Numbered from the stretch's first letter, positions 19,736-29,238 are shown. The stretch is 64,000 nucleotides of DNA from Gemmatales bacterium (GCA_041640595.1 JBEPZY010000001.1:416001-480000); one strand, 5' to 3'. Notes: generated by a model from the letters alone, not told the origin. Translations and numbers: made by a program.

Positions 19736-20124
19736 TGGCAAACCCGTGTTCGGTCGGCTTTGCCTGGACATGCCGTCGAGGTGCCTACGGCATCATTCCG
19801 CAATCCATACTGATTGGGACAACACTCGGTAGTTAGGTTGGGCCGAGTGATTCCGCCAGTATTTCAGGATTCGTGCTGCATTCATTCTGCTCCTCGTGTA
19901 ATAAACAGCACCGCTTGCCTAAAGCGCACTTTCGGACTAAGCTGCGATTGGGGCCGGACTTCAGACCGCTGGGCTGGCCATAAGCCGAAACTGGCTGGTG
20001 TATAATTTGTAAAGAAACGGTGTGCCGGCCCTAGCGCTAGCCAGGAAGAACGAGTCGGCCAGGTCGCCATCACGGTGTTCATTATTCGGCACCTCGTGTC
20101 GAGCGCCTAGGCGAGAATCGAACG

Positions 20125-20934
20125 ATGTCTTTTGCATTGTCTATTGGCCAGAAGTCAGATATTGGCAACTACCGCGAGAATAACGAAGACCGTGTTCTCG
20201 TTTCGCAGGTGCAGGAAAACGGTCGCTGTCAGTTATTGGCCTGTCTGGTGGCGGACGGCATGGGAGGTCAGCTGGCAGGTGAGAAAGCCAGCGAAATGGC
20301 CACGGATTTAATCTGGCAGGAACTTCAAAAGGGTTATGGCCAGGTGCAGAATGTTGAGCAAGTCAAGCAGCTTATCCGCCAGGCAGCGGTTCGCGCCAAC
20401 GAAGAGATCATGGAGCTCGGGCAGTTTCACCGCGAATACAGCAACATGGGCACCACCATTGTGTTGGCGGTCTGGTTACCACCGCTACGGGACGATTGTC
20501 TGTTCATAAGCTGGCTGGGCGATAGCCGTGCCTACCTTGTACGCGATCGCAAAATCGAATGCCTGACGGTTGACCATTCCATCGCTCAGGCGCTGGTCGA
20601 AGCCGGGGTCTTATCAGCCGAAGAAGCTCGCGTTCATCGCTTTCGCAACCGGTTGTGGAAATACCTCGGCACGAAGGAAGTAGCAGACGGGCCCGACGTC
20701 AAAGTCGTGTATTTGCGGCCAGGTGACCGCTTCCTACTGTGCACGGACGGCCTGACCGGGGTGGTCGAGGACGAAAAACTCGCCGAGGTTATTGCCGCCA
20801 ACACAGACCCGCAAAAAGCTGCCGAAGACCTGGTTAAACTGGCCCTCGATTGCGACAGCAAGGACAACGTTTCTTGCGTCCTGATTTACGTAGAAGAAGC
20901 GCCGGCCCCGGTAGCCTACATCCTCGGCAACTGA
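20125..20934 (+). CDS. PP2C-type Ser/Thr phosphatase
   Basis: RENNED, VADGMGG, MGTT, GDSRAY, LCTDGL and DNVS. Confidence 0.95.
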   Translation: MSFALSIGQKSDIGNYRENNEDRVLVSQVQENGRCQLLACLVADGMGGQLAGEKASEMATDLIWQELQKGYGQVQNVEQVKQLIRQAAVRANEEIMELGQFHREYSNMGTTIVLAVWLPPLRDDCLFISWLGDSRAYLVRDRKIECLTVDHSIAQALVEAGVLSAEEARVHRFRNRLWKYLGTKEVADGPDVKVVYLRPGDRFLLCTDGLTGVVEDEKLAEVIAANTDPQKAAEDLVKLALDCDSKDNVSCVLIYVEEAPAPVAYILGN

Positions 20935-21246
20935 CTTGGCTTGCGCAGTATCAGTAAACTTTCTATGTTACAAGAATCTTATCAGACCCCTTGCAACCTC
21001 CCTATTTTCCAATAAACCGAGTTTAGCCGGATTAACCGATTGGCCGAAGTTTTCCAAAGGGCGCAGCGTGCGTATTTAGAGTGTAGCTGAACATGGGCAG
21101 TCCAGAAGCGATCGGCCGCGTTCTTGACGCTGCCCGGCCGGTCCTCCAAAGCATTCGGTCTGCTGCATCTCCCCGACCTTGCTGAGCACAGCGCGAAATT
21201 GGCGCTTGGGTCTTCAGGACTCGCATCTATCAAAGGAGGTCCGCAC

Positions 21247-21948
21247 ATGTCTGCTCTTAGGAACGCTTTTCTGCGCGTAGAACGGCTGGAAGACCGTGAC
21301 TTGCCCGCAGGCACGGTCACAGCGGCTTTTGCCGCAGGCACCCTTACCCTGACCGGGGATGCGCAAGCCAACAACCTGGAAGTGCGCATCGACAACGGCA
21401 ACGTTACGCTCAAAGGTAAAGGTACGACCATCGCCGGCGGAACTAGCTTCGCTGGCGTCAATGACATTGTCATTAATCTTGGCGACGGCAACGACCGCGT
21501 AACCGTTCGCGGACGCACCTTGGCCGGCAACCTCACTATCGATCTCGGCAACGGCAACGATCATGCTCAGCTCAAGAAGCTTTCGGTTACCGGCAATGTG
21601 TCGGTCACTGGCGGCGCTGGAAATGACCACGTGAAAATCGAAGATCACGTTTTCGTCGGCGGCAACGTTACCGTTACGACCAACGACGGCAACGACCACG
21701 TGGGCATCGAAGAGCTCCACGTAACCGGCACTACCAGCGTGGACACCGGGCTGGGCAACGACAAAGTCGAAATTGAAGAAAGTCAATTCAGCGGTGCCGC
21801 CACGATTCTACTGGGCGACGGCAATGACCGTATCAAGCTGGAAGATGTCAGCTTCGCCGTGGCCAGCACTGTGGATGGCGGTAACGGCACGGACAAGCTC
21901 AAACGAGAAGACGTGTCCGGCCCTGTCAATTACCTTAACTTCCCGTAA
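21247..21948 (+). CDS. Extracellular beta-helix repeat protein with planctomycete LEDR N-terminal motif
   Basis: LRVERLEDR; seven G(N/T)D repeats about 22 aa apart; AAAGGAGG RBS before ATG 21247. Confidence 0.85.
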   Translation: MSALRNAFLRVERLEDRDLPAGTVTAAFAAGTLTLTGDAQANNLEVRIDNGNVTLKGKGTTIAGGTSFAGVNDIVINLGDGNDRVTVRGRTLAGNLTIDLGNGNDHAQLKKLSVTGNVSVTGGAGNDHVKIEDHVFVGGNVTVTTNDGNDHVGIEELHVTGTTSVDTGLGNDKVEIEESQFSGAATILLGDGNDRIKLEDVSFAVASTVDGGNGTDKLKREDVSGPVNYLNFP

Positions 21949-22016
21949 CCCGCTATAGGCGGCCGGCTTCCGAAACGACCACTACCATGGGCTGTGGCGC
22001 CAGTGCGGGGATGCGC

Positions 22017-22544
22017 TTAGCTGCTTGATGTACCCCCTTGGCGCCTCAGCCAAAGCTGCTGGATCTTTTCTTGCAAAGCCAGGATCGTGCTCAGTGAACG
22101 CGCGTAAAGTCGTAGCGCTCGTGTGCCCGCGCTGCATAGCTGCTGCGACAAATTCGCCAACCATTCTCCTAATGGCATAACTTCTTCGTCGGGCTCTAAA
22201 GGCACCAGACCTTTTGGCAACAGCACTTCGCTGACGCGCGGCTGGCCGCTCAGGCCGACCAATTTTGGCACGCGCGTGTGGCACATATCGAGATAAACCG
22301 GCTCTAAGTCATGACGAATGCGTGTAAATAACTCGACCACCGAACCACCGTGCGCCCGTACGAAGTCCGGGTCCGCTTTCATCACTTCCTCGACCACTTC
22401 AATCATAGCTGCCCACTGCCTGAGTCCTCCCGCCCATTGCTCTACGCGGCGCATCCAGCGATAATAGTCGAGCAAGCTATCCTGAGCCTGGCGACTCAGT
22501 TGCCCTGCCATCGCATAATGGTACTGGAACGTTAGCTTGTCCAC
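22017..22544 (-). CDS. Hypothetical helical protein downstream of Lon-CARF
   Basis: 175-aa ORF, co-oriented, 48 bp after the Lon-CARF stop. Confidence 0.65.
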   Translation of the reverse strand: MDKLTFQYHYAMAGQLSRQAQDSLLDYYRWMRRVEQWAGGLRQWAAMIEVVEEVMKADPDFVRAHGGSVVELFTRIRHDLEPVYLDMCHTRVPKLVGLSGQPRVSEVLLPKGLVPLEPDEEVMPLGEWLANLSQQLCSAGTRALRLYARSLSTILALQEKIQQLWLRRQGGTSSS

Positions 22545-22592
22545 CTGCTTCAGCGACTAAGTGCCTATGTTTTTCAAACCCATCTCTCGTTA

Positions 22593-23972
22593 CTAGGGAC
22601 GTCGCTGGTTATAAAGTATCCATTGTTCTGTAAAGGGCACGACCATCTGCCTCTTGCGTTCGTGCCGCAAGTACAGGAGTCGGTGTTCCGGCTGCGCCAC
22701 TCGCAGCGCCAGAGTCAGGGTCATTTCCTTAGTGCCTGGCGTGAGATCAAGCCCGACCAACTCGGCAGGCACACCCTGGACAAACGTGTGGACTTCCCGT
22801 TCTAACTCTCGCAACAATTCATCCGTGCTTTTATAAATCTTCCAGATAACCTCGCAGGGCCTTTGTGCCGATGCTCGCATCTCTTCTAGTTCGCGCATTG
22901 CAGCTCGCTTATCACTGGTTGCCAGTACCAGGCATCGGCTTGCTCCGATGCTTTCAATGGCGATGTGAACTAACTCCGGATTATCGCTTAATATGGTAAC
23001 CAGGTGGGAAATGGTCCCATTCTTTTCCTGCCATTGCTGCCGGAGCCGTTCGATAACTCGGGGGAGTAATTGCTGGCGATAGTATTGCTTAGCACGATCG
23101 GTATTCCGACTATAGAGCCGCTCGTAATAGGCTTGCAAGTATTTTATCGGACCGTCTGGCGGAGGCGGCACTTCCAGTTCTAATAAGCACGGGCGCAATG
23201 CTTCCACCGGATCAGATTTGCCCTGCGGCAAGCCTTGAATGGTAAGCAGCGATTGCTCCGGCAACAATTGCCTGGCGTATTCGATTTGACTTTCGGGTAC
23301 AAAGAAAATCTTAACGCCACTCTGTGGCAAACTGGCCGCTCGGAGTTTTTCTTCGAGACAACCGACTGCATCTATACCGCTGCCGTCGTTCCATTCGGCG
23401 GTGATCCATACGTCATGTCGTAGGGAAGGTGCATTGTTTTCCTGAGTCTGGCGTATCTGTTCCGCAGCAATTAGGCTCGCACATAACCAACCCCAACCGG
23501 AACTCGGCGATAACTGTAATTCGGCAGCGAGTGCATGCAGAAAGTCTTGGTCGCTGATGCGCACCGCCAGTTGCAATCCCCATCGCGAAAAATCCGAATT
23601 GTTCCTGAAATCATCGGACGGAACGTGAACGAGTTTTTGACGGATATTTTCTGCGAGTTGTCGCACACGGTCGGGCAACCGCGAGTCGTCGGCCTTTCCC
23701 CAGGCCCACTGCAGAGGTAGCAGGAATGCTTCCCGAAGCGTGGGAAACTGACGGGTATCAGTCAAAGCGTACAAAATGGCACAACCGTTAGGGCGGGGTT
23801 CTAAACTCCAGCGCGCGGACCTTACTAAGTCACCACTCGCTTTTGCTAACACCTCCGGGCGCAACCACCAGTAAGCTAGGTCTCCCAATCGGTGAGTTAG
23901 CCACAGGCATTCGTGTTGCGTCAACTCATCAGGAGGCTTCCTGAGCCGATGGAGAATCAGTTCCTGACTCAT
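22593..23972 (-). CDS. Lon-type (S16-like Ser-Lys) protease fused to a C-terminal CARF domain
   Basis: PSSG (S157/S158)..DVWITAE..IDAVGCLEEKLRAA (K209)..GVKIFFVP; then HLVTILSDNPE..CLVLATS..LDLTPGTKEMT..LLYL; GGAGG RBS. Confidence 0.82.
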   Translation of the reverse strand: MSQELILHRLRKPPDELTQHECLWLTHRLGDLAYWWLRPEVLAKASGDLVRSARWSLEPRPNGCAILYALTDTRQFPTLREAFLLPLQWAWGKADDSRLPDRVRQLAENIRQKLVHVPSDDFRNNSDFSRWGLQLAVRISDQDFLHALAAELQLSPSSGWGWLCASLIAAEQIRQTQENNAPSLRHDVWITAEWNDGSGIDAVGCLEEKLRAASLPQSGVKIFFVPESQIEYARQLLPEQSLLTIQGLPQGKSDPVEALRPCLLELEVPPPPDGPIKYLQAYYERLYSRNTDRAKQYYRQQLLPRVIERLRQQWQEKNGTISHLVTILSDNPELVHIAIESIGASRCLVLATSDKRAAMRELEEMRASAQRPCEVIWKIYKSTDELLRELEREVHTFVQGVPAELVGLDLTPGTKEMTLTLALRVAQPEHRLLYLRHERKRQMVVPFTEQWILYNQRRP

Positions 23973-25095
23973 GGTGCAATGCCTCCACTAAGTCGGGTGG
24001 AATTGATTGTAAATCTGCCTCCCAGACCTCGCGCGAACTGCCCACAGCCAAACAAGGGGGCTTACCAGATTCGAGCGCCTGCAAGAGACCATCGCTCGGA
24101 AACCAGGCTTTGCCCTCGGCGCTGATCTTGCTTTCTAAGTCGGCTAACCAAACCGGTTGATTGCTTAAGCCCAGCGCCGGTTCGCCTGCTCTGGTCATAA
24201 ATACTATTTCAATTTGTTCCGGCCTTTTATCCTGAACGAGCACGCAATGGGCCTCGTACTGGCGATCGGGCGAAACCCAGCGAATGATAACTGGTTGCCC
24301 CGCTGGCGCAGCAGCTACCCGGGCGCGCAACGTCATCAGCAAGAGTAGTTTCAGAGCCGCTAATTGGCGCTCCTCCTTATCGGTAACTGCCCGGGCTACT
24401 GCTTGCCAGATTCCAGCCGACGGCATCCGCTTCAGCGCTTCCTGCATGGATACCTGCGCTACTTCCGACAGTAACCCGCTCAGCCACCACGGCATCAGCC
24501 CCTGATGATCCTGGGTCAAAAGAATTCGCCAGTTTTCAATCAACGGGAGGTGCGCCACGGTGCTGAGGATTTCTAAGTTTTCAGATTGCTGCAATGCCGT
24601 GTCCAACTGCTCTACTTTTTCGGTTAATGCCTGCAACGAGCTATCGTATTCCTGCCACGAAATTTCCTGGTCACCATACGCCTCTAACAAGGCCTCATCC
24701 ACGGCAATATAAGCGGCGTGAATGTCCATCCGATCCAGGAGTAAACGAACGCACAACTCATCGCGCTCTATGGGTTCATCGGTGCTGTCCCAATCATGTG
24801 CGAGGGTTTGGGCACGTTTGGCAGCATCGTCAATTAAGGCATGCAGGGCGGTCATTGCCGCCTTAGCTATAGGTAAGGGCAGGGCGCCGTCCTCATCGCC
24901 CAGGTCCGCGCCGAACAACCGGCAATAACCTAGCGCAATGGCCGCTCGTAACGCCGATGCTTGATGTGCCGGCGTCAGCGGAACCCCGGCCAGTATTTCA
25001 TGGAGTTCCTGCTGCGCCAGGATTTCGTTCAGCTCCTGAACGTAGATAGCCAGCACATCATTATTGCGAGCGAAAATTTCCGTGGTCATAATCAT
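23929..25095 (-). CDS. Hypothetical 388-aa protein (helical N-domain, beta-rich C-domain); candidate protease substrate or anti-sigma
   Basis: Start placed at ATG 25095 or 25089 behind AAGGGA; overlaps the Lon-CARF start. Confidence 0.75.
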   Translation of the reverse strand: MIMTTEIFARNNDVLAIYVQELNEILAQQELHEILAGVPLTPAHQASALRAAIALGYCRLFGADLGDEDGALPLPIAKAAMTALHALIDDAAKRAQTLAHDWDSTDEPIERDELCVRLLLDRMDIHAAYIAVDEALLEAYGDQEISWQEYDSSLQALTEKVEQLDTALQQSENLEILSTVAHLPLIENWRILLTQDHQGLMPWWLSGLLSEVAQVSMQEALKRMPSAGIWQAVARAVTDKEERQLAALKLLLLMTLRARVAAAPAGQPVIIRWVSPDRQYEAHCVLVQDKRPEQIEIVFMTRAGEPALGLSNQPVWLADLESKISAEGKAWFPSDGLLQALESGKPPCLAVGSSREVWEADLQSIPPDLVEALHHESGTDSPSAQEAS

Positions 25096-25126
25096 GTCCC
25101 TTACTAATTGCGTAATTTTGGCGACA

Positions 25127-25867
25127 TTACTTCGTCGTGGTCGAATGTTTGCCGTTTTCCGAATCTTCCAACGGGTCGGGCAACGTCCATCGCCGTTGCC
25201 TGAGTTTAATACGCGGCCGCCTGGTCGTCGGTGACAACATTTCCGCGGCTGGCCATTCGGGCAGCGCGCCCCGCCACACTGGAAGAGGAGCACTCGTGTC
25301 GAAGCCCCAGTTCTCCGGTTGCACGAAGCGGATTTTTTCATCCGTCGGCATAAAAAAGCGCCTGGCTCCACCTTGTTCCCTAATGGGAGCGTAACGCCAA
25401 ATATAGGTGTGAGCAACATGACGCCACCGACGATGCGGCGGGTGAAGATTAGGGCGGTCGGGATAATAGCAGGTTACCAGATGTGCCCGGCTATCGTCGT
25501 ATTTGGACTTGAGCACGAAAATGGCCCCAGTAGGCAGAATAGCTATCCAGGCATGACGGCTTAATCCAATCCGTTGCAGTAATACCAACGGACGATTCAG
25601 CGATTCGCGCAGTGCCCCACCGAATAACTGCTCCAGTCGCCCCAGGGTCTCATCGTTTAAGTCTGACTCGCCGTGGTACCATTGGACTAAGCGGTCGCAA
25701 AGCTCCTGCGTCAGCCATTCGGCCCACGGTCCATCGCATCGAGAGATGTGGCGCTGAACAATATGGGCCAGGCATTGCTGCAATAGGATCACCGTACAGC
25801 GCTTGCCGCGTGGGGCATCTGGATCACGGGGATCAGGTAGCTTGTCCCATATCAGGAAGATCGCCAT
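25127..25867 (-). CDS. Hypothetical 246-aa protein with BECR/RelE-like motifs
   Basis: HIVQRH near the N-terminus and beta-rich ..HLVTCYY; GGGAG RBS; overlaps the sigma stop. Confidence 0.65.
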   Translation of the reverse strand: MAIFLIWDKLPDPRDPDAPRGKRCTVILLQQCLAHIVQRHISRCDGPWAEWLTQELCDRLVQWYHGESDLNDETLGRLEQLFGGALRESLNRPLVLLQRIGLSRHAWIAILPTGAIFVLKSKYDDSRAHLVTCYYPDRPNLHPPHRRWRHVAHTYIWRYAPIREQGGARRFFMPTDEKIRFVQPENWGFDTSAPLPVWRGALPEWPAAEMLSPTTRRPRIKLRQRRWTLPDPLEDSENGKHSTTTK

Positions 25868-26639
25868 GACCGTGCTCCCTAGCCAGTTCGCGAATGCAGC
25901 GGAGTTTCATTAGCCATTCGAGACGCCGTTTCCATATCACACATAAATGATTCTCGGTCAGCCCGGTCACCTCGGCTAACACTTTGAGGCGCTCTTGCTT
26001 ATTGTCTAAGCTTAACATTGCAGCTGGTGGAAACGGCCAGGGCCACCCCACTTCTAAAACCCATTGCTTCCACGTGTTTTCCGGTATCTTACACCATAAG
26101 CCGGAAAGCACCAGCATAATGATGCGATCGCGCAGAGGTCGCCAACTGGACACCCGGCTCAAGTCCTCCTCACAAAAGGGAAGTTGGAATAGCGACAACG
26201 CCTTGGGCATAACTGCCACCGACTCACCGCCAAGCCATTCGAGAACGTCAAGGCCCTCGTTCTGGACTCTTTCAGTAACTTGCTGGGATAATCTCAGGTT
26301 GCTTAATGCGGTTGGCCGTCGGCGCTGTTGATCATGAAGAAAGTTGCGGGCGACACGCTTCGCCCAGCCCACAAATCGGCCTCTGTGAGGATCGAATCTT
26401 CCTTGTAATAGTTTCAATATGACGTGTTGTGCCGCATCCTCTGCTAAAGATTCATCGTTGAGATTCATAACCGTCGCAGCCAACTGTCGCCGCGCTATAA
26501 TTGCTACAATCCCTGTCAGTCGCTCGATTGCTTGAGCTCGCAACGTTTCGGGTTGGGTGTTATCAAGGATTAGTGCGACTAACGCTTCCGGGTCAGCATT
26601 TACCAGATCATCAGGGGACGGTGCTTGCGATTCCGGCAT
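25833..26639 (-). CDS. Atypical ECF-like sigma70 factor
   Basis: Region 2 AEDAAQHVILKL..FDPHRGRFVGWAKRVARN..D; region-4-like LAEVTGLTENHL; GGGGAG RBS. Confidence 0.8.
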   Translation of the reverse strand: MPESQAPSPDDLVNADPEALVALILDNTQPETLRAQAIERLTGIVAIIARRQLAATVMNLNDESLAEDAAQHVILKLLQGRFDPHRGRFVGWAKRVARNFLHDQQRRRPTALSNLRLSQQVTERVQNEGLDVLEWLGGESVAVMPKALSLFQLPFCEEDLSRVSSWRPLRDRIIMLVLSGLWCKIPENTWKQWVLEVGWPWPFPPAAMLSLDNKQERLKVLAEVTGLTENHLCVIWKRRLEWLMKLRCIRELAREHGHGDLPDMGQAT

Positions 26640-26879
26640 AAATCAACTCCCCGTGGTGTGAAAGCCACCAGATGCAATTGTTGCCTTAGGTACCGATATT
26701 CCGGATCGCCGTTCGCCCAAGCGGCAAAGCCGTTAGCAGGAGAAACAAGTTCCGCTATCCAATGAAAAAGCGCATCATTGGCTTCGCTATGGACTCGGCA
26801 TGTCGTTGGCAGCCAATGCTTCCGGCCACCCATTGCATGTCGCCGACCACTTATTTGATCGCAGATGCGATAGCGCTGG

Positions 26880-27809
26880 TTAGGCAGCGTATTTTTTCCG
26901 CATGGTATCTATAAAGCGCTTGCAGTCGGCGGTGACCGTCCAGGCGTCCGGCCAGAAGCATAGATCTATGCACCACCAATCCGAGGGAATATTAGCACGC
27001 AGAAGGGCGGGGATTACCTCGTCCCAATTAATCAAGCCCTTGCCGAACGGTGCATGGGTGCTGGTTTCGTCGTTGCCTTGCTCATCTTTGTGACAGGTGC
27101 CGTCGGAATCTATTAGGTGAAGGTGTGTGATCTTTCCCTTGAGTTTTTCGATTAGTTCCAGCACACCGCCTTTAAGGGTTTCCTTTTCACCGGGCTGGCG
27201 TGCTCCAACAACGCTGACCATATAAGCGTGGCTGGTGTCGAACAATACGCCGAAATTCGGATTGCCAAGGCTTCGCACCTCGTCCACTATCGAGACGATT
27301 TCCGAGGGCTTATTGAAAGCGAAGCCAGGCTCAAACTCCCAGGCGACGCGCATGCCCCGATCGGCAGCAATCTTGGCGCATTTATCCCATGCCTTGACGA
27401 TGCGTTCACGGCCGAGGCGTGGATCGAGACCGGTTTTTTGAAAGATATCCGGGGGCTCTAGAGTATCTACGCGAATCAGGTCAATGCCTAAATCTTCTGC
27501 GAACAGCACATTGCGGGCAAATTCGGCTATGTAAGGTCCGCTGTCAGGAACACTGATCACTTTGTGCATCCAGAGGTTGGCGGCCAGCCCGGAAAACTCC
27601 AGTCCATGATCCTGCACTTCCTTGCGCAATGCATGCCGCTTTTTCTGCGTATCGTATTGATCGGGATTAGGGTGCGGCGGAAAACCTCCCAATTCTACGC
27701 CATCAAAACCCATATCTTGCAATTTGTGTAAGACTGTGTGGAAATCAACGGGGTTTGTCTTATAGGGACCAAGCACGTAAGCCCAGCTGCCAATCGAGAT
27801 TTTCTTCAT
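26880..27809 (-). CDS. Sugar-phosphate isomerase/epimerase (TIM barrel)
   Basis: GFDGVEL, WEFEPGF, LFDTSH and HLHLIDSDG. Confidence 0.88.
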   Translation of the reverse strand: MKKISIGSWAYVLGPYKTNPVDFHTVLHKLQDMGFDGVELGGFPPHPNPDQYDTQKKRHALRKEVQDHGLEFSGLAANLWMHKVISVPDSGPYIAEFARNVLFAEDLGIDLIRVDTLEPPDIFQKTGLDPRLGRERIVKAWDKCAKIAADRGMRVAWEFEPGFAFNKPSEIVSIVDEVRSLGNPNFGVLFDTSHAYMVSVVGARQPGEKETLKGGVLELIEKLKGKITHLHLIDSDGTCHKDEQGNDETSTHAPFGKGLINWDEVIPALLRANIPSDWWCIDLCFWPDAWTVTADCKRFIDTMRKKYAA

Positions 27810-27909
27810 GCGTCGCCTCCTTTGAGTTCATCACCTGTTGTGGTGCAGATCATTACCCATGTCGAGCATCAATCCGGTCTTTATTTCAGTCTCATGCACC
27901 AAGTTTTGA

Positions 27910-29238
27910 CTATCTGGCAAGTCGCTTATGATCGCCGACATTGGGAGCATCAGGATTTGTGTCGGGGCCGAAATAGCGCAAGGTCACCAGGGGTTCCGTG
28001 CCGGTATTTTCAAAGACGACACCAGCGCGTGCGGCATCGTAGGTAACAAAGACTTCGTCGGCGGTGAGTTCACCGAAGCGGATCATAGCCGGGGTTTCAA
28101 GCTCTAAGGTGCCGATACGTCCTCGACCTTGCACGGTGATCAAGCCATAGGCTCCGTTATCGCGGATGGTAACACGAACACCGGGTTGAATAGTTAGTTC
28201 TTTGGCAGTGAAAAGCTCCTGCCCATCTACGCGACCGTAAACGACCCAGCGATCTATATATCCTTCGCTAGCCGTGTCGGCGACGGGGATGGGTTCTAAG
28301 TAATGATGGTCTTTAAAATAGGGATCAACGTTCGCTTCCCAATCCAGCTGCTCGACTAAATAATCTAAGTCCTGGTGCTTATCGGGCGGCACGTCCTTGA
28401 CAAGTAAGTCCCAGGGGACATAGCGTCCTTCGACCATGGATTGATACATGGCAAAAACGTCGGAGCCCCATTGCGGTTCGTAAGTAACAAGCGAGCCCGG
28501 CGCATGCAGGATACAGGGAGGAACAAGCCAGCCGGTGCCGGGTTGCAAGCGGTAGGCTTTGCTGTAATTCAAAATGCCGTTGTCGCCTTCGTTCCAGCGT
28601 TCTAAGCATCGGCGGATGTCTTCCTTAGTGGTTCCTGGCTCTAAGCCAAAGAAGGTGTAGGGGAAATTATTGCCGATGCTATTCAATTGCGGCGGAAAAT
28701 AATAAGCTTCGGGTTTACCCTGCTGGCCGACGAGTGCGGCTTGCTCATTGTTCTGGTGCATATGATGCGGAATCGGGCCGAGGTTATCGAAAAATTTGCT
28801 GTAAACTGGCCAGCGATGATACTTGTCCCACATCGGCTTGCCGATAAACAAGGGGCCTTCGAGTTCGATAGCTTCTTTCAAGGTAACGAATTTGCGGCCT
28901 TGATAAACGATGTAACTAAGTCCTTCGTCCCAGGGTGCGCCTTCGTTGGCGGCGGGGGTGGTGGAAGCGAACCAGCGTTCGTCTATTCCGCCACGGTGTG
29001 CTCCCAGGGCGTAATAATCGTTGGGATGAAGTTTGAGACGCTTGCCGGGCATCAAGAAAGAGCGAGGCACCCAGGTCGGAGCCAATCGAACAATACCGTT
29101 GCCGGCCTCAACAATTTCCCGAATTTGCTGAGAGGTAACCGCGGGCCGGCGAACGTTGTCCATCAGTCGAGGTGATGAGGCTTTTCGAGAACGGGCAGGT
29201 TTCTTGCGAGCAGCAGTGCGAGTAGTTTTGCGTGCCAT
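27910..29238 (-). CDS. Cupin-fold, mannose-6-phosphate-isomerase-like protein
   Basis: ERW, KFFD..PHHMH, GKPEAYY and LHAPG..EPQ..SD. Confidence 0.75.
   Translation of the reverse strand: MARKTTRTAARKKPARSRKASSPRLMDNVRRPAVTSQQIREIVEAGNGIVRLAPTWVPRSFLMPGKRLKLHPNDYYALGAHRGGIDERWFASTTPAANEGAPWDEGLSYIVYQGRKFVTLKEAIELEGPLFIGKPMWDKYHRWPVYSKFFDNLGPIPHHMHQNNEQAALVGQQGKPEAYYFPPQLNSIGNNFPYTFFGLEPGTTKEDIRRCLERWNEGDNGILNYSKAYRLQPGTGWLVPPCILHAPGSLVTYEPQWGSDVFAMYQSMVEGRYVPWDLLVKDVPPDKHQDLDYLVEQLDWEANVDPYFKDHHYLEPIPVADTASEGYIDRWVVYGRVDGQELFTAKELTIQPGVRVTIRDNGAYGLITVQGRGRIGTLELETPAMIRFGELTADEVFVTYDAARAGVVFENTGTEPLVTLRYFGPDTNPDAPNVGDHKRLAR

Follow-up and report, generated by a model that had tools for sequence, protein, structure and literature searches.

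A Lon-CARF protease cassette of a Gemmatales bacterium, a probable CARF-sensor analogue of CalpL-CalpT-CalpS with a new anti-sigma candidate, lies apart from cas genes

CalpL is, to our knowledge, so far the only CRISPR-linked Lon protease with a known mechanism. In the CalpL-CalpT-CalpS system (Rouillon et al., Smalakyte et al.) an ATPase-less Lon domain with a Ser-Lys dyad is joined to a C-terminal sensor of cyclic oligoadenylates, the soluble partner CalpT carries an alanine-rich motif in a disordered linker, a dedicated sigma factor resembling those of the extracytoplasmic function (ECF) group completes the set, and relatives occur in type III loci. Here we describe a locus in which each of these features has a counterpart. 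It lies in a stretch of 64,000 nucleotides from a Gemmatales bacterium (GCA_041640595.1 JBEPZY010000001.1:416001-480000), called the window below, which corresponds to C1:416001-480000 of the genome that we designate G000 (4.45 Mb, 42 contigs, 95.5% complete); L numbers denote other stretches included in our survey. The open reading frame (ORF) listing confirmed that five co-oriented, overlapping or closely spaced frames run along the minus strand at 22017-26639 (C1:438017-442639), as an earlier note on this DNA had described, and the central one encodes a Lon-CARF protease. We consider it likely that four of them form a cyclic-oligoadenylate-responsive protease switch of type III CRISPR immunity, similar in logic to CalpL-CalpT-CalpS and built of different parts.

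Several features set the cassette apart from the CalpL system. The sensor here is a single CARF domain most similar to that of TtCsm6 (Z 17.4), whereas CalpL has a SAVED domain, and action as a dimer would be expected here, in contrast to the filament stacking of CalpL. The 388-aa partner, composed of a helical bundle and a beta domain, has no detectable likeness to the MazF-like and DUF2080 domains of CalpT; for these two domains there was no Pfam match, and no PDB chain at E below 0.7, with the 388-aa and 246-aa proteins of the cassette or their relatives. Unlike the CalpL system, one branch of the cassette has this extra 246-aa protein, and the cassette described here stands apart from all cas genes. 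The earlier note had proposed a parallel, CARF-sensed protease cascade with a different substrate; the Lon-CARF protease, the sigma factor, a partner that is not CalpT and relatives in type III loci speak for this proposal, and its count of five genes does not stand.

CARF-Lon proteins as such have been catalogued before. "Lon-CARF" was the original name of CalpL, which was later found to have a SAVED4 domain (preprint 10.1101/2021.12.06.471393), and the PADLOC family CARF_m2--CARF_LON (PDLC01981), to which the protein described here matches over its full length, represents the same family. In its passages on CARF-Lon fusions, a 2022 review (PMC9704534) treats them as bioinformatic predictions, speculated to cleave essential host proteins or to act promiscuously, and those passages mention neither a sigma factor, nor a 388-aa partner, nor the alanine motif. 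Supplementary Table 2 of the 2025 CRISPR classification, which covers only the major CARF clades, gives CalpL (SAVED and Lon) as the sole Lon effector (PMC12669027). We found no paper on a sigma/anti-sigma wiring of CARF-Lon proteins, or on experiments with them, in a search that did not include Makarova et al. 2020 and Shmakov et al. 2018, both of which may hold remarks on the subject. As to the question whether the whole combination is undescribed, which the earlier note had left to a search, the wiring was not found in print, and the CARF-Lon fusion is already present in PADLOC and in the 2022 review.

Two further described systems deserve a comparison. Craspase-Csx30-Csx31-RpoE of type III-E and the SAVED-CHAT cascades resemble our cassette, as proposed here, in that a protease triggered by CRISPR cuts a partner linked to a sigma factor, and in that several proteins, a further small one among them, make up the output arm. 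They use a caspase-like (CHAT) protease, activated by the RNA-bound effector or, through SAVED, by cA3, and PDB profile searches gave no sequence match of the 388-aa or 246-aa protein to their partners. In the second system, RseA/sigma-E, envelope stress leads DegS and RseP to cleave the membrane protein RseA. Cleavage of this anti-sigma factor exposes a C-terminal VAA for ClpXP, and the motif found here would leave exactly VAA; in contrast to RseA/sigma-E, all proteins of our cassette seem to be soluble, and a nucleotide sensor forms part of the protease.

The Lon-CARF protease has 459 residues and is encoded at 22593..23972 on the minus strand. It matches PADLOC PDLC01981 from end to end (E 1.7e-106, 355 bits, residues 3-455 on positions 3-407 of a model of 408), and no Pfam family, SAVED included, was found in it. 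A profile of 17 homologues, searched against PDB sequences, matched the CARF domain of TtCsm6 (E 2.1e-5) and, at E 7.3e-4 (1z0e) and weaker, proteolytic domains of archaeal and bacterial Lon. The AlphaFold2 (AF2) model is of high quality, with a predicted local distance difference test (pLDDT) value of 89.6 and a predicted template modelling score (pTM) of 0.85, and its best Foldseek matches were TtCsm6 and LonA (E of about 1e-8 to 1e-7). When structures were compared with VIA, residues 39-269 of the model matched Yersinia Lon (6on2_A; Z 16.4, root-mean-square deviation 3.0 A over 180 residues), and residues 275-459 matched TtCsm6 with cyclic tetra-adenylate (cA4; Z 17.4, 2.6 A over 175 residues). 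The Lon and CARF folds that had been proposed for this protein are therefore borne out by PADLOC, profile, Foldseek and VIA matches alike. In the model, the Lon domain occupies approximately residues 39-269 (23166-23858) and the CARF domain approximately residues 273-459 (22596-23156). The C-terminal 187 residues form one CARF domain, the PADLOC matches are to CARF families, and a SAVED domain was not found. CalpL chains were absent from the 42 PDB sequences found with the profile at E<=10 and from the Foldseek and VIA matches listed, which leaves room for a distant kinship of the Lon domains.

Residues expected of an active protease and of a ligand-binding sensor are kept in this family. Ser158 (23499-23501) and Lys209 (23346-23348), the candidate catalytic pair (23346..23501, minus strand), are present in 33 of 33 sequences, that is the 17 homologues plus 16 proteins from fetched loci, and in the alignment of the 17 homologues these two residues and the D-L-T-x-G block are invariant. 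In the model, Ser158 stands just before the helix of residues 160-175 and Lys209 lies inside the helix of residues 206-214. It is on this motif context and these helix positions that we regard the pair as a candidate for the Ser-Lys dyad of Lon. In CARF domains, motif I is a Ser or Thr after strand 1 and motif II is T-x-G-x-K after strand 4, according to the part of PMC10897365 that deals with these motifs. The corresponding residues here (22728..22988, minus strand) are Ser329 for motif I and Asp409-x-Thr411-x-Gly413-x-Lys415 for motif II, and Ser329, Asp409, Thr411, Gly413 and Lys415 are kept in 31-33 of the 33 sequences. The T-x-G-x-K block aligns in the profile alignment with T133, G135 and K137 of TtCsm6. 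The K137A substitution abolishes cA4 binding by TtCsm6, and Crn1-type ring nucleases have these same motifs (PMC10897365). By analogy, cA4 is most likely the ligand of Lon-CARF, and the CARF motifs suggest that the protein may also degrade its own activator.

The family is not small. Word-index protein searches gave few relatives (16, 9 and 5), and a single-protein search of genome contigs gave one weak match only (L016). An exhaustive profile search of 1.84 billion sequences revealed a much larger Lon-CARF family: 1,015 representatives reached E<=0.001, of which 674 also reached E<=1e-10 and 459 also E<=1e-30, the last number standing for clusters at 50% identity. Among the best 150 representatives, almost every one is a full-length protein of 440-490 aa, and the members that we looked up bear the source name "hypothetical protein".

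Directly upstream, at 23929..25095 on the minus strand, lies the gene of a 388-aa protein, our candidate for the anti-sigma factor and protease substrate, which would be a functional analogue, and not a homologue, of CalpT. The length is counted from an inner ATG; the longest ORF has 496 aa, extends to 25419 and overlaps the 246-aa gene in another frame. Relatives do not support this longer reading, since their frames do not open until shortly before the inner ATG. The protein belongs to no Pfam, PADLOC or NCBIfam family. In its AF2 model (pLDDT 81.3, pTM 0.57), a helical N-domain (residues 10-225; 24421-25068) is followed by a disordered linker (residues 227-268; 24292-24417) and then by a beta domain (residues 269-361; 24013-24291). 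Foldseek gave no match at E<=0.001 and the ESM Atlas none that was usable, and a wide VIA search returned generic three-helix bundles of the spectrin type with Z up to 9.4, which are common arrangements.

The linker contains a candidate cut site. The residues Val260-Ala-Ala-Ala263 (24307..24318, minus strand) fall within the segment 260-264 of the model, where pLDDT is below 50, and [VILMT]-Ala-Ala occurs 13-19 residues before the invariant Trp273 in all 14 aligned members of the 388-aa family, which share 17-36% identity outside the close relative. CCaCalpL is known to cut CalpT between LAA and the alanine that follows, and the exposed LAA degron is needed by cellular proteases to free CalpS; RseA likewise exposes a VAA degron (both from the sections of preprint 10.1101/2024.05.08.593097 on degrons). 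The same degron logic fits the 388-aa protein, whose N-terminal fragment would, by this analogy, end in VAA and expose a future C-degron.

The first gene of the cassette (25833..26639, minus strand) encodes an ECF-like sigma factor of 268 aa, the putative CalpS analogue. Sigma region 2, at approximately residues 55-108 (26316-26477), was recognised by Pfam Sigma70_r2 (E 2e-8; 34.4 bits, above the cut-off of 24), and NCBIfam TIGR02937 scored 33.3 bits, under its cut-off of 42.9. The family alignment shows a conserved helix-turn-helix-like (HTH-like) block in the C-terminal region, which is divergent (residues 198-240; 25920-26048), and the sequence GGGGAG stands 9-10 nt upstream of the ATG.

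Modelling of the complex, which had been proposed as a check, was performed with the sigma factor as the scored partner of the 246-aa and 388-aa chains, in three runs and with three controls. The interface score (ipSAE) was 0.87, 0.88 and 0.87, against 0.45 for the best of the three controls; exchanging the 388-aa chain for another, with the 246-aa chain left in place, brought it down to 0.00. The score mark that we used is reached by 116 of 157 solved complexes and by 2 of 215 mismatched pairs, and this calibration is only rough for our own alignments and for three chains. The runs share at least 82% of contacts, with pLDDT of at least 77 for the partner. Residues 44-60, 87-122, 133-183 and 198-240 of the sigma factor, the last being its HTH-like region, are predicted to contact residues 99-240 of the 388-aa protein, and only nine residues of the 246-aa protein touch the sigma factor. 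Such predicted contacts are what an anti-sigma factor clasping regions 2 and 4 would look like.

Our survey comprised 41 stretches with a Lon-CARF gene, namely the window, a paralogous locus in the same genome, three genomes of the phylum and 36 metagenome loci, several of which duplicate each other. Hidden Markov models (HMMs) of the four cassette families were run over the stop-to-stop ORFs of these stretches. The order sigma, 246-aa, 388-aa, Lon-CARF was found by tblastn and HMM at 25-37% identity in L020, L030, L031/L039 and L042, and L045 has all four genes in a rearranged order. The recurrence of the genes in other genomes, which the earlier note had left to be looked for, is thus real: the four occur together in order at about 30% identity on unrelated contigs. 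A set of sigma, 388-aa and Lon-CARF genes without the 246-aa gene is present in L033 (twice), L035, L040 and L041. Upstream sequence is available in 33 stretches, and in 30 of these a gene of the 388 family stands next to Lon-CARF; in the remaining 8 of the 41, the contig begins at the Lon-CARF gene and the upstream part is not visible. In L022, an upstream ORF of 429 aa matches the 388 family, alanine motif included (hhalign 87%, E 3.9e-6), and the duplicates L051/L052, whose match is partial, are the only ones to lack a 388-family gene despite upstream sequence. By HMM, 17 stretches have a sigma gene at the head of the cassette, and Pfam adds L046. From this comparison of sequences, the conserved unit is four genes, those of the ECF-like sigma, the 246-aa protein, the 388-aa protein and Lon-CARF.

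The connection with CRISPR comes from relatives of the cassette and from the rest of the genome. Pfam domains were searched for in the neighbourhoods of 11 of the 41 stretches, picked for their long flanks, and in four of these (L033, L035, L042 and L046) a Cas10 gene lies directly downstream of Lon-CARF, within 2 kb; all four adjoining Cas10 proteins carry GGDD. A Cas_APE2256 CARF gene is further present in L035, Card1 and Csx16-like genes in L046, and a gene for a Cas3-like helicase in L057. Two RAMP genes adjoin the cassette in L021, and a Csm6-HEPN gene adjoins it in L022. As a separate observation, L033 (1347-16479; duplicate L034) carries a tandem pair of diverged sigma/388-like/Lon-CARF cassettes, flanked by cas6 on one side and by a complete cmr1-6 operon on the other, and its first sigma ORF (370-423 aa) has the C-terminal conserved block twice.

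In the window itself, Cas10 searches and a repeat scan found neither Cas10 nor an array (C1:416001-480000), and SMODS, the domain of CD-NTases, gave no match anywhere in the 95.5%-complete genome, in agreement with what the earlier note had stated for these 64 kb. Its broader phrase, no CRISPR nearby, is right for the window and not for the contig, as the same contig carries a cas1 gene together with an array (C1:359749-377911) that has at least 247 repeats and ends 60 kb from the operon. A second array, of at least 190 repeats, is on C8, and a cas1 gene stands beside each of the two arrays. The genome search for sources of the signal, also suggested beforehand, yielded three Cas10 genes, all with GGDD and all on other contigs than the operon: Csm1 (621 bits) with Csm2 and Csm3 on the short contig C23, Cmr2 (286 bits) in a Cmr1-6 set beside type I genes on C8, and a third, HD-Cas10 gene with RAMPs on C3. 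With three intact GGDD motifs in the genome, the idea of a signal arriving in trans is plausible. Further CARF and SAVED genes (Cas_APE2256, SAVED, CARF_Card1) were noted at C7:75474-75875, C6:78404-78760, C1:13619-13978 and C20:2809-3117; because they are scattered over four more contigs, none of which holds Cas10, this genome seems generally to keep signalling effectors apart from effector complexes. Lon-CARF matches were found in 4 of 401 sampled genomes of the phylum, three of which have a Cas10 palm match, against a background of 76 of 401. In a complete genome of the same class (G330:C1), the same four-gene cassette stands at about 198.9-203.1 kb, again as an orphan, 58 kb from a Cas10 gene at 260.8 kb.

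We therefore propose the following course of events, drawing on analogy with described systems for its ligand, cut site, degron and output. In the resting cell, the helical N-domain of the 388-aa protein would clasp the dedicated ECF-like sigma factor and keep it inactive. When one of the three type III complexes meets foreign RNA, Cas10 would produce a cyclic oligoadenylate, most likely cA4, which would be bound by the CARF domain of Lon-CARF, probably as a dimer. The Lon domain with Ser158 and Lys209 would then cut the linker of the 388-aa protein after Val260-Ala-Ala and before Ala263. The N-terminal fragment, now ending in VAA, would present a ClpXP-type degron and be degraded, and the freed sigma factor would redirect transcription.

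Several observations weigh against this proposal, and they concern both the sigma/anti-sigma relation and the link to CRISPR. The sigma factor has no Pfam match to sigma region 4, and the 388-aa protein resembles no known anti-sigma factor by sequence (Pfam, PDB) or by fold (Foldseek, VIA); it may act as one outside the known families. The interface score is the modelling program's own confidence, and a general mode of clasping could have been learned by it; complexes of sigma and anti-sigma factors are common among solved structures. The proposal also assigns no step to the 246-aa protein. In the 80% relative represented by L026 and L028, the sigma gene has a premature stop and lacks an ATG at the orthologous start: a TGG-to-stop change in the conserved "KQW" block (L028 5308-6132, the same in L026), with the other three cassette genes intact, so that it looks, from its sequence, like a pseudogene within an otherwise kept cassette. 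Moreover, no sigma gene was found beside the C5 paralogue, in L021 or in L057/L058 despite upstream sequence. Because the C5 paralogue, L021 and L057 have no adjoining sigma gene, the 388-like/Lon-CARF pair appears separable from the sigma factor and can, as far as gene content tells, exist without a dedicated one. As to CRISPR, no cas gene was found within 8 kb in 6 of the 11 neighbourhoods (L020, L028, L030, L031, L040 and L045), nor within the same distance in the window's own; because these six lack nearby cas genes, the link rests on the other neighbourhoods and on Cas10 elsewhere in the genome. Finally, no Cas10 was found in one of the four Lon-CARF genomes of the phylum (G082, 75% complete), and these numbers are small.

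The pairs that lack a sigma factor bring forward another explanation, in which the 388-aa protein or a fragment of it is an effector, for instance a toxin, released by Lon-CARF, and the sigma factor merely controls expression of the operon. Apart from the C5 paralogue, L021 and L057, it can appeal to the overlap of the 388-aa and Lon-CARF genes, which are once found fused, and to the first model of CalpT, in which a toxin was also released (preprint 10.1101/2021.12.06.471393, in its part on CalpT). The predicted binding of the sigma factor to the 388-aa protein, lost completely when that chain is replaced, argues against it, as does the position of the sigma gene at the head of the cassette in most lineages with enough upstream sequence. 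Furthermore, Pfam and fold searches showed no likeness to known toxins or enzymes in either domain of the 388-aa protein. We thus consider a released effector unlikely. Two side observations belong here. The C5 locus (L003 7468-10324; G000:C5 at about 101.5-104.3 kb) is a second 388-like/Lon-CARF pair of 31% identity, with catalytic and CARF residues intact, no adjoining sigma or 246-aa gene, and no cas gene among the neighbouring ORFs that were read. P0054, an 853-aa protein on one 4.2-kb metagenome contig, has 388-family sequence in residues 4-364 (hhalign 99.9%) joined to Lon-CARF in residues 392-834 and could reflect a genuine gene fusion or else an indel error where the two genes usually overlap.

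The neighbourhoods free of cas genes, the window's among them, would suit a second alternative: regulated proteolysis independent of CRISPR, with the CARF domain sensing some other nucleotide or metabolite and the sigma/anti-sigma pair serving a stress response that is only sometimes encoded near cas genes. Some CARF clades are indeed typically not associated with CRISPR (PMC12669027, in the clades of Supplementary Table 2). Against this stand the Cas10 genes adjoining Lon-CARF in 4 of 11 neighbourhoods, together with other type III genes beside two more, which is far above chance placement, as well as the match of the CARF motifs to those of TtCsm6, which binds cA4, and the three GGDD-bearing Cas10 genes of the genome itself. 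This explanation seems to us distinctly improbable.

The divergence between the window and L028, estimated with the method of Nei and Gojobori (NG86), bears on a third question, whether the cassette is functional at all in this lineage. The ratio of nonsynonymous to synonymous substitution rates (dN/dS) is 0.10 for the 388-aa gene (dS 0.15), 0.22 for the 246-aa gene (dS 0.43), 0.41 for the Lon-CARF gene (dS 0.29) and 0.62 for the sigma gene (dS 0.31), compared with 0.03-0.04 for two flanking genes (20125-20934 and 26880-27809), whose dS of 1.25-1.64 is saturated. Because the gene order recurs at about 30% identity and dN/dS lies between 0.10 and 0.62, the cassette genes are, on the evidence of sequence comparison, more than chance ORFs. 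As the dS of the cassette is far below that of the flanks, it also suggests that the cassette was exchanged between lineages more recently than its surroundings. The proteins of the cassette evolve faster than those of the flanks; defence genes often evolve fast at the protein level. The value for the sigma gene fits the broken sigma gene of L026/L028. The raised dN/dS of the sigma and Lon-CARF genes, the broken sigma gene of the 80% relative and a 1.7-kb deletion suffered by the adjoining M48 gene could be taken for signs of a decaying, non-functional remnant. Nevertheless, the window and its relatives of 94-99% identity have intact copies of all four ORFs, catalytic and ligand residues are kept, and the 388-aa gene is strongly constrained; in addition, contigs spanning the whole operon at 90-99% identity are found in hot-spring metatranscriptome libraries from four studies, which demonstrates presence only and does not prove transcription. 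Decay of the cassette is accordingly a very improbable explanation in our judgement. Weighing these alternatives together, we still hold it probable that the cassette is a CARF-sensor analogue of CalpL-CalpT-CalpS, with an unrelated and newly recognised anti-sigma candidate, orphaned from cas genes.

The 246-aa protein (25127..25867, minus strand) is regarded, by gene order and conservation, as an accessory part of one branch of the cassette. Its family was found by HMM in 12 of the 41 stretches, in about eight lineages and always between the sigma and 388-aa genes, and its alignment contains invariant Trp, Gly and Pro residues. It had no match in Pfam, NCBIfam, PADLOC, PHROGs or PDB sequences, and hhalign found no match between the 246-aa and 388-aa families. 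Its scores in the ESM Atlas were only 0.79-0.88, and a minority of the cluster members carried PBECR nuclease families, which we treat as a lead and not as a finding.

The fifth frame (22017..22544, minus strand), 175 aa long, had been taken for an extra toxin-like gene of the operon, and this did not hold. The window is collinear with L028, whose Lon-CARF is 80% identical, at 87% nucleotide identity, except that 1,714 bp (L028 9408-11123) are missing at window position 22550/22553 (junction at about 22550-22553). The intact ORF of L028 encodes 744 aa, with N-terminal hydrophobic stretches, an HEFGH motif and Peptidase_M48 at residues 122-381, whereas the window keeps only its last 175 codons, in which the M48 domain with HExxH was not found. 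The undeleted form is represented in a hot-spring RNA library by one contig, in which 1,712 additional letters stand at 22552/22553, and the 175-aa ORF is confined to relatives of at least 81% identity. Because of this deletion relative to the intact M48 gene of L028, the frame is, by collinearity, the 3' remnant of a gene for an M48 membrane peptidase and stands outside the conserved module.

Within the operon, the sigma and 246-aa genes overlap by 35 nt and the 388-aa and Lon-CARF genes by 44 nt; gaps of 31 nt and 48 nt separate the 246-aa from the 388-aa gene and Lon-CARF from the 175-aa ORF, respectively. The flanking genes are ordinary ones, as had been thought: Pfam families, judged through the orthologues in L028, are those of an AMP-binding enzyme, a xylose-isomerase-like TIM barrel, a PP2C phosphatase and an MFS transporter. 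The 240-bp intergenic stretch upstream of the sigma gene (26640..26879, minus strand) is, by its position only, the likely promoter region of the operon. A scan for the sigma-70 consensus gave no match in 26640-26879; over the whole region, promoter and terminator counts were at chance level (5 against 3.9 expected and 8 against 5.3 expected), and Rfam gave no match in window positions 20000-28000. Nearby, at 21124-21948 on the plus strand, we observed an ORF of 274 aa with repeated "GNDxV/GNDHV" units, overlapped by long antisense ORFs.

A wider claim can be built on the proposed switch, and we rate its chances as even. In the sizeable CARF-Lon family, a path leading from cyclic oligoadenylate by way of proteolysis to a transcriptional response would have been assembled a second time and independently. 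It would include a new anti-sigma family and a private sigma factor and would share with CalpT only the logic of an alanine-rich cut site turned degron. In the Gemmatales genome, this module would be uncoupled from any one CRISPR locus and duplicated, it may integrate three type III systems, and the 246-aa protein would be a wholly new component.

If the proposal is true, type III systems would have arrived on at least two occasions at the relay of nucleotide, protease, anti-sigma cleavage and sigma release, each time using another sensor and a substrate of other descent, and transcriptional reprogramming would be a more general output of CRISPR signalling than a single example suggests. It would also provide a compact, soluble, ligand-gated and site-specific protease with a short, defined cut motif, a possible tool. 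For the bacterium itself, an orphan cassette accompanied by three Cas10 genes elsewhere in the genome would be a natural case for studying how far cyclic-oligoadenylate effectors act in trans.

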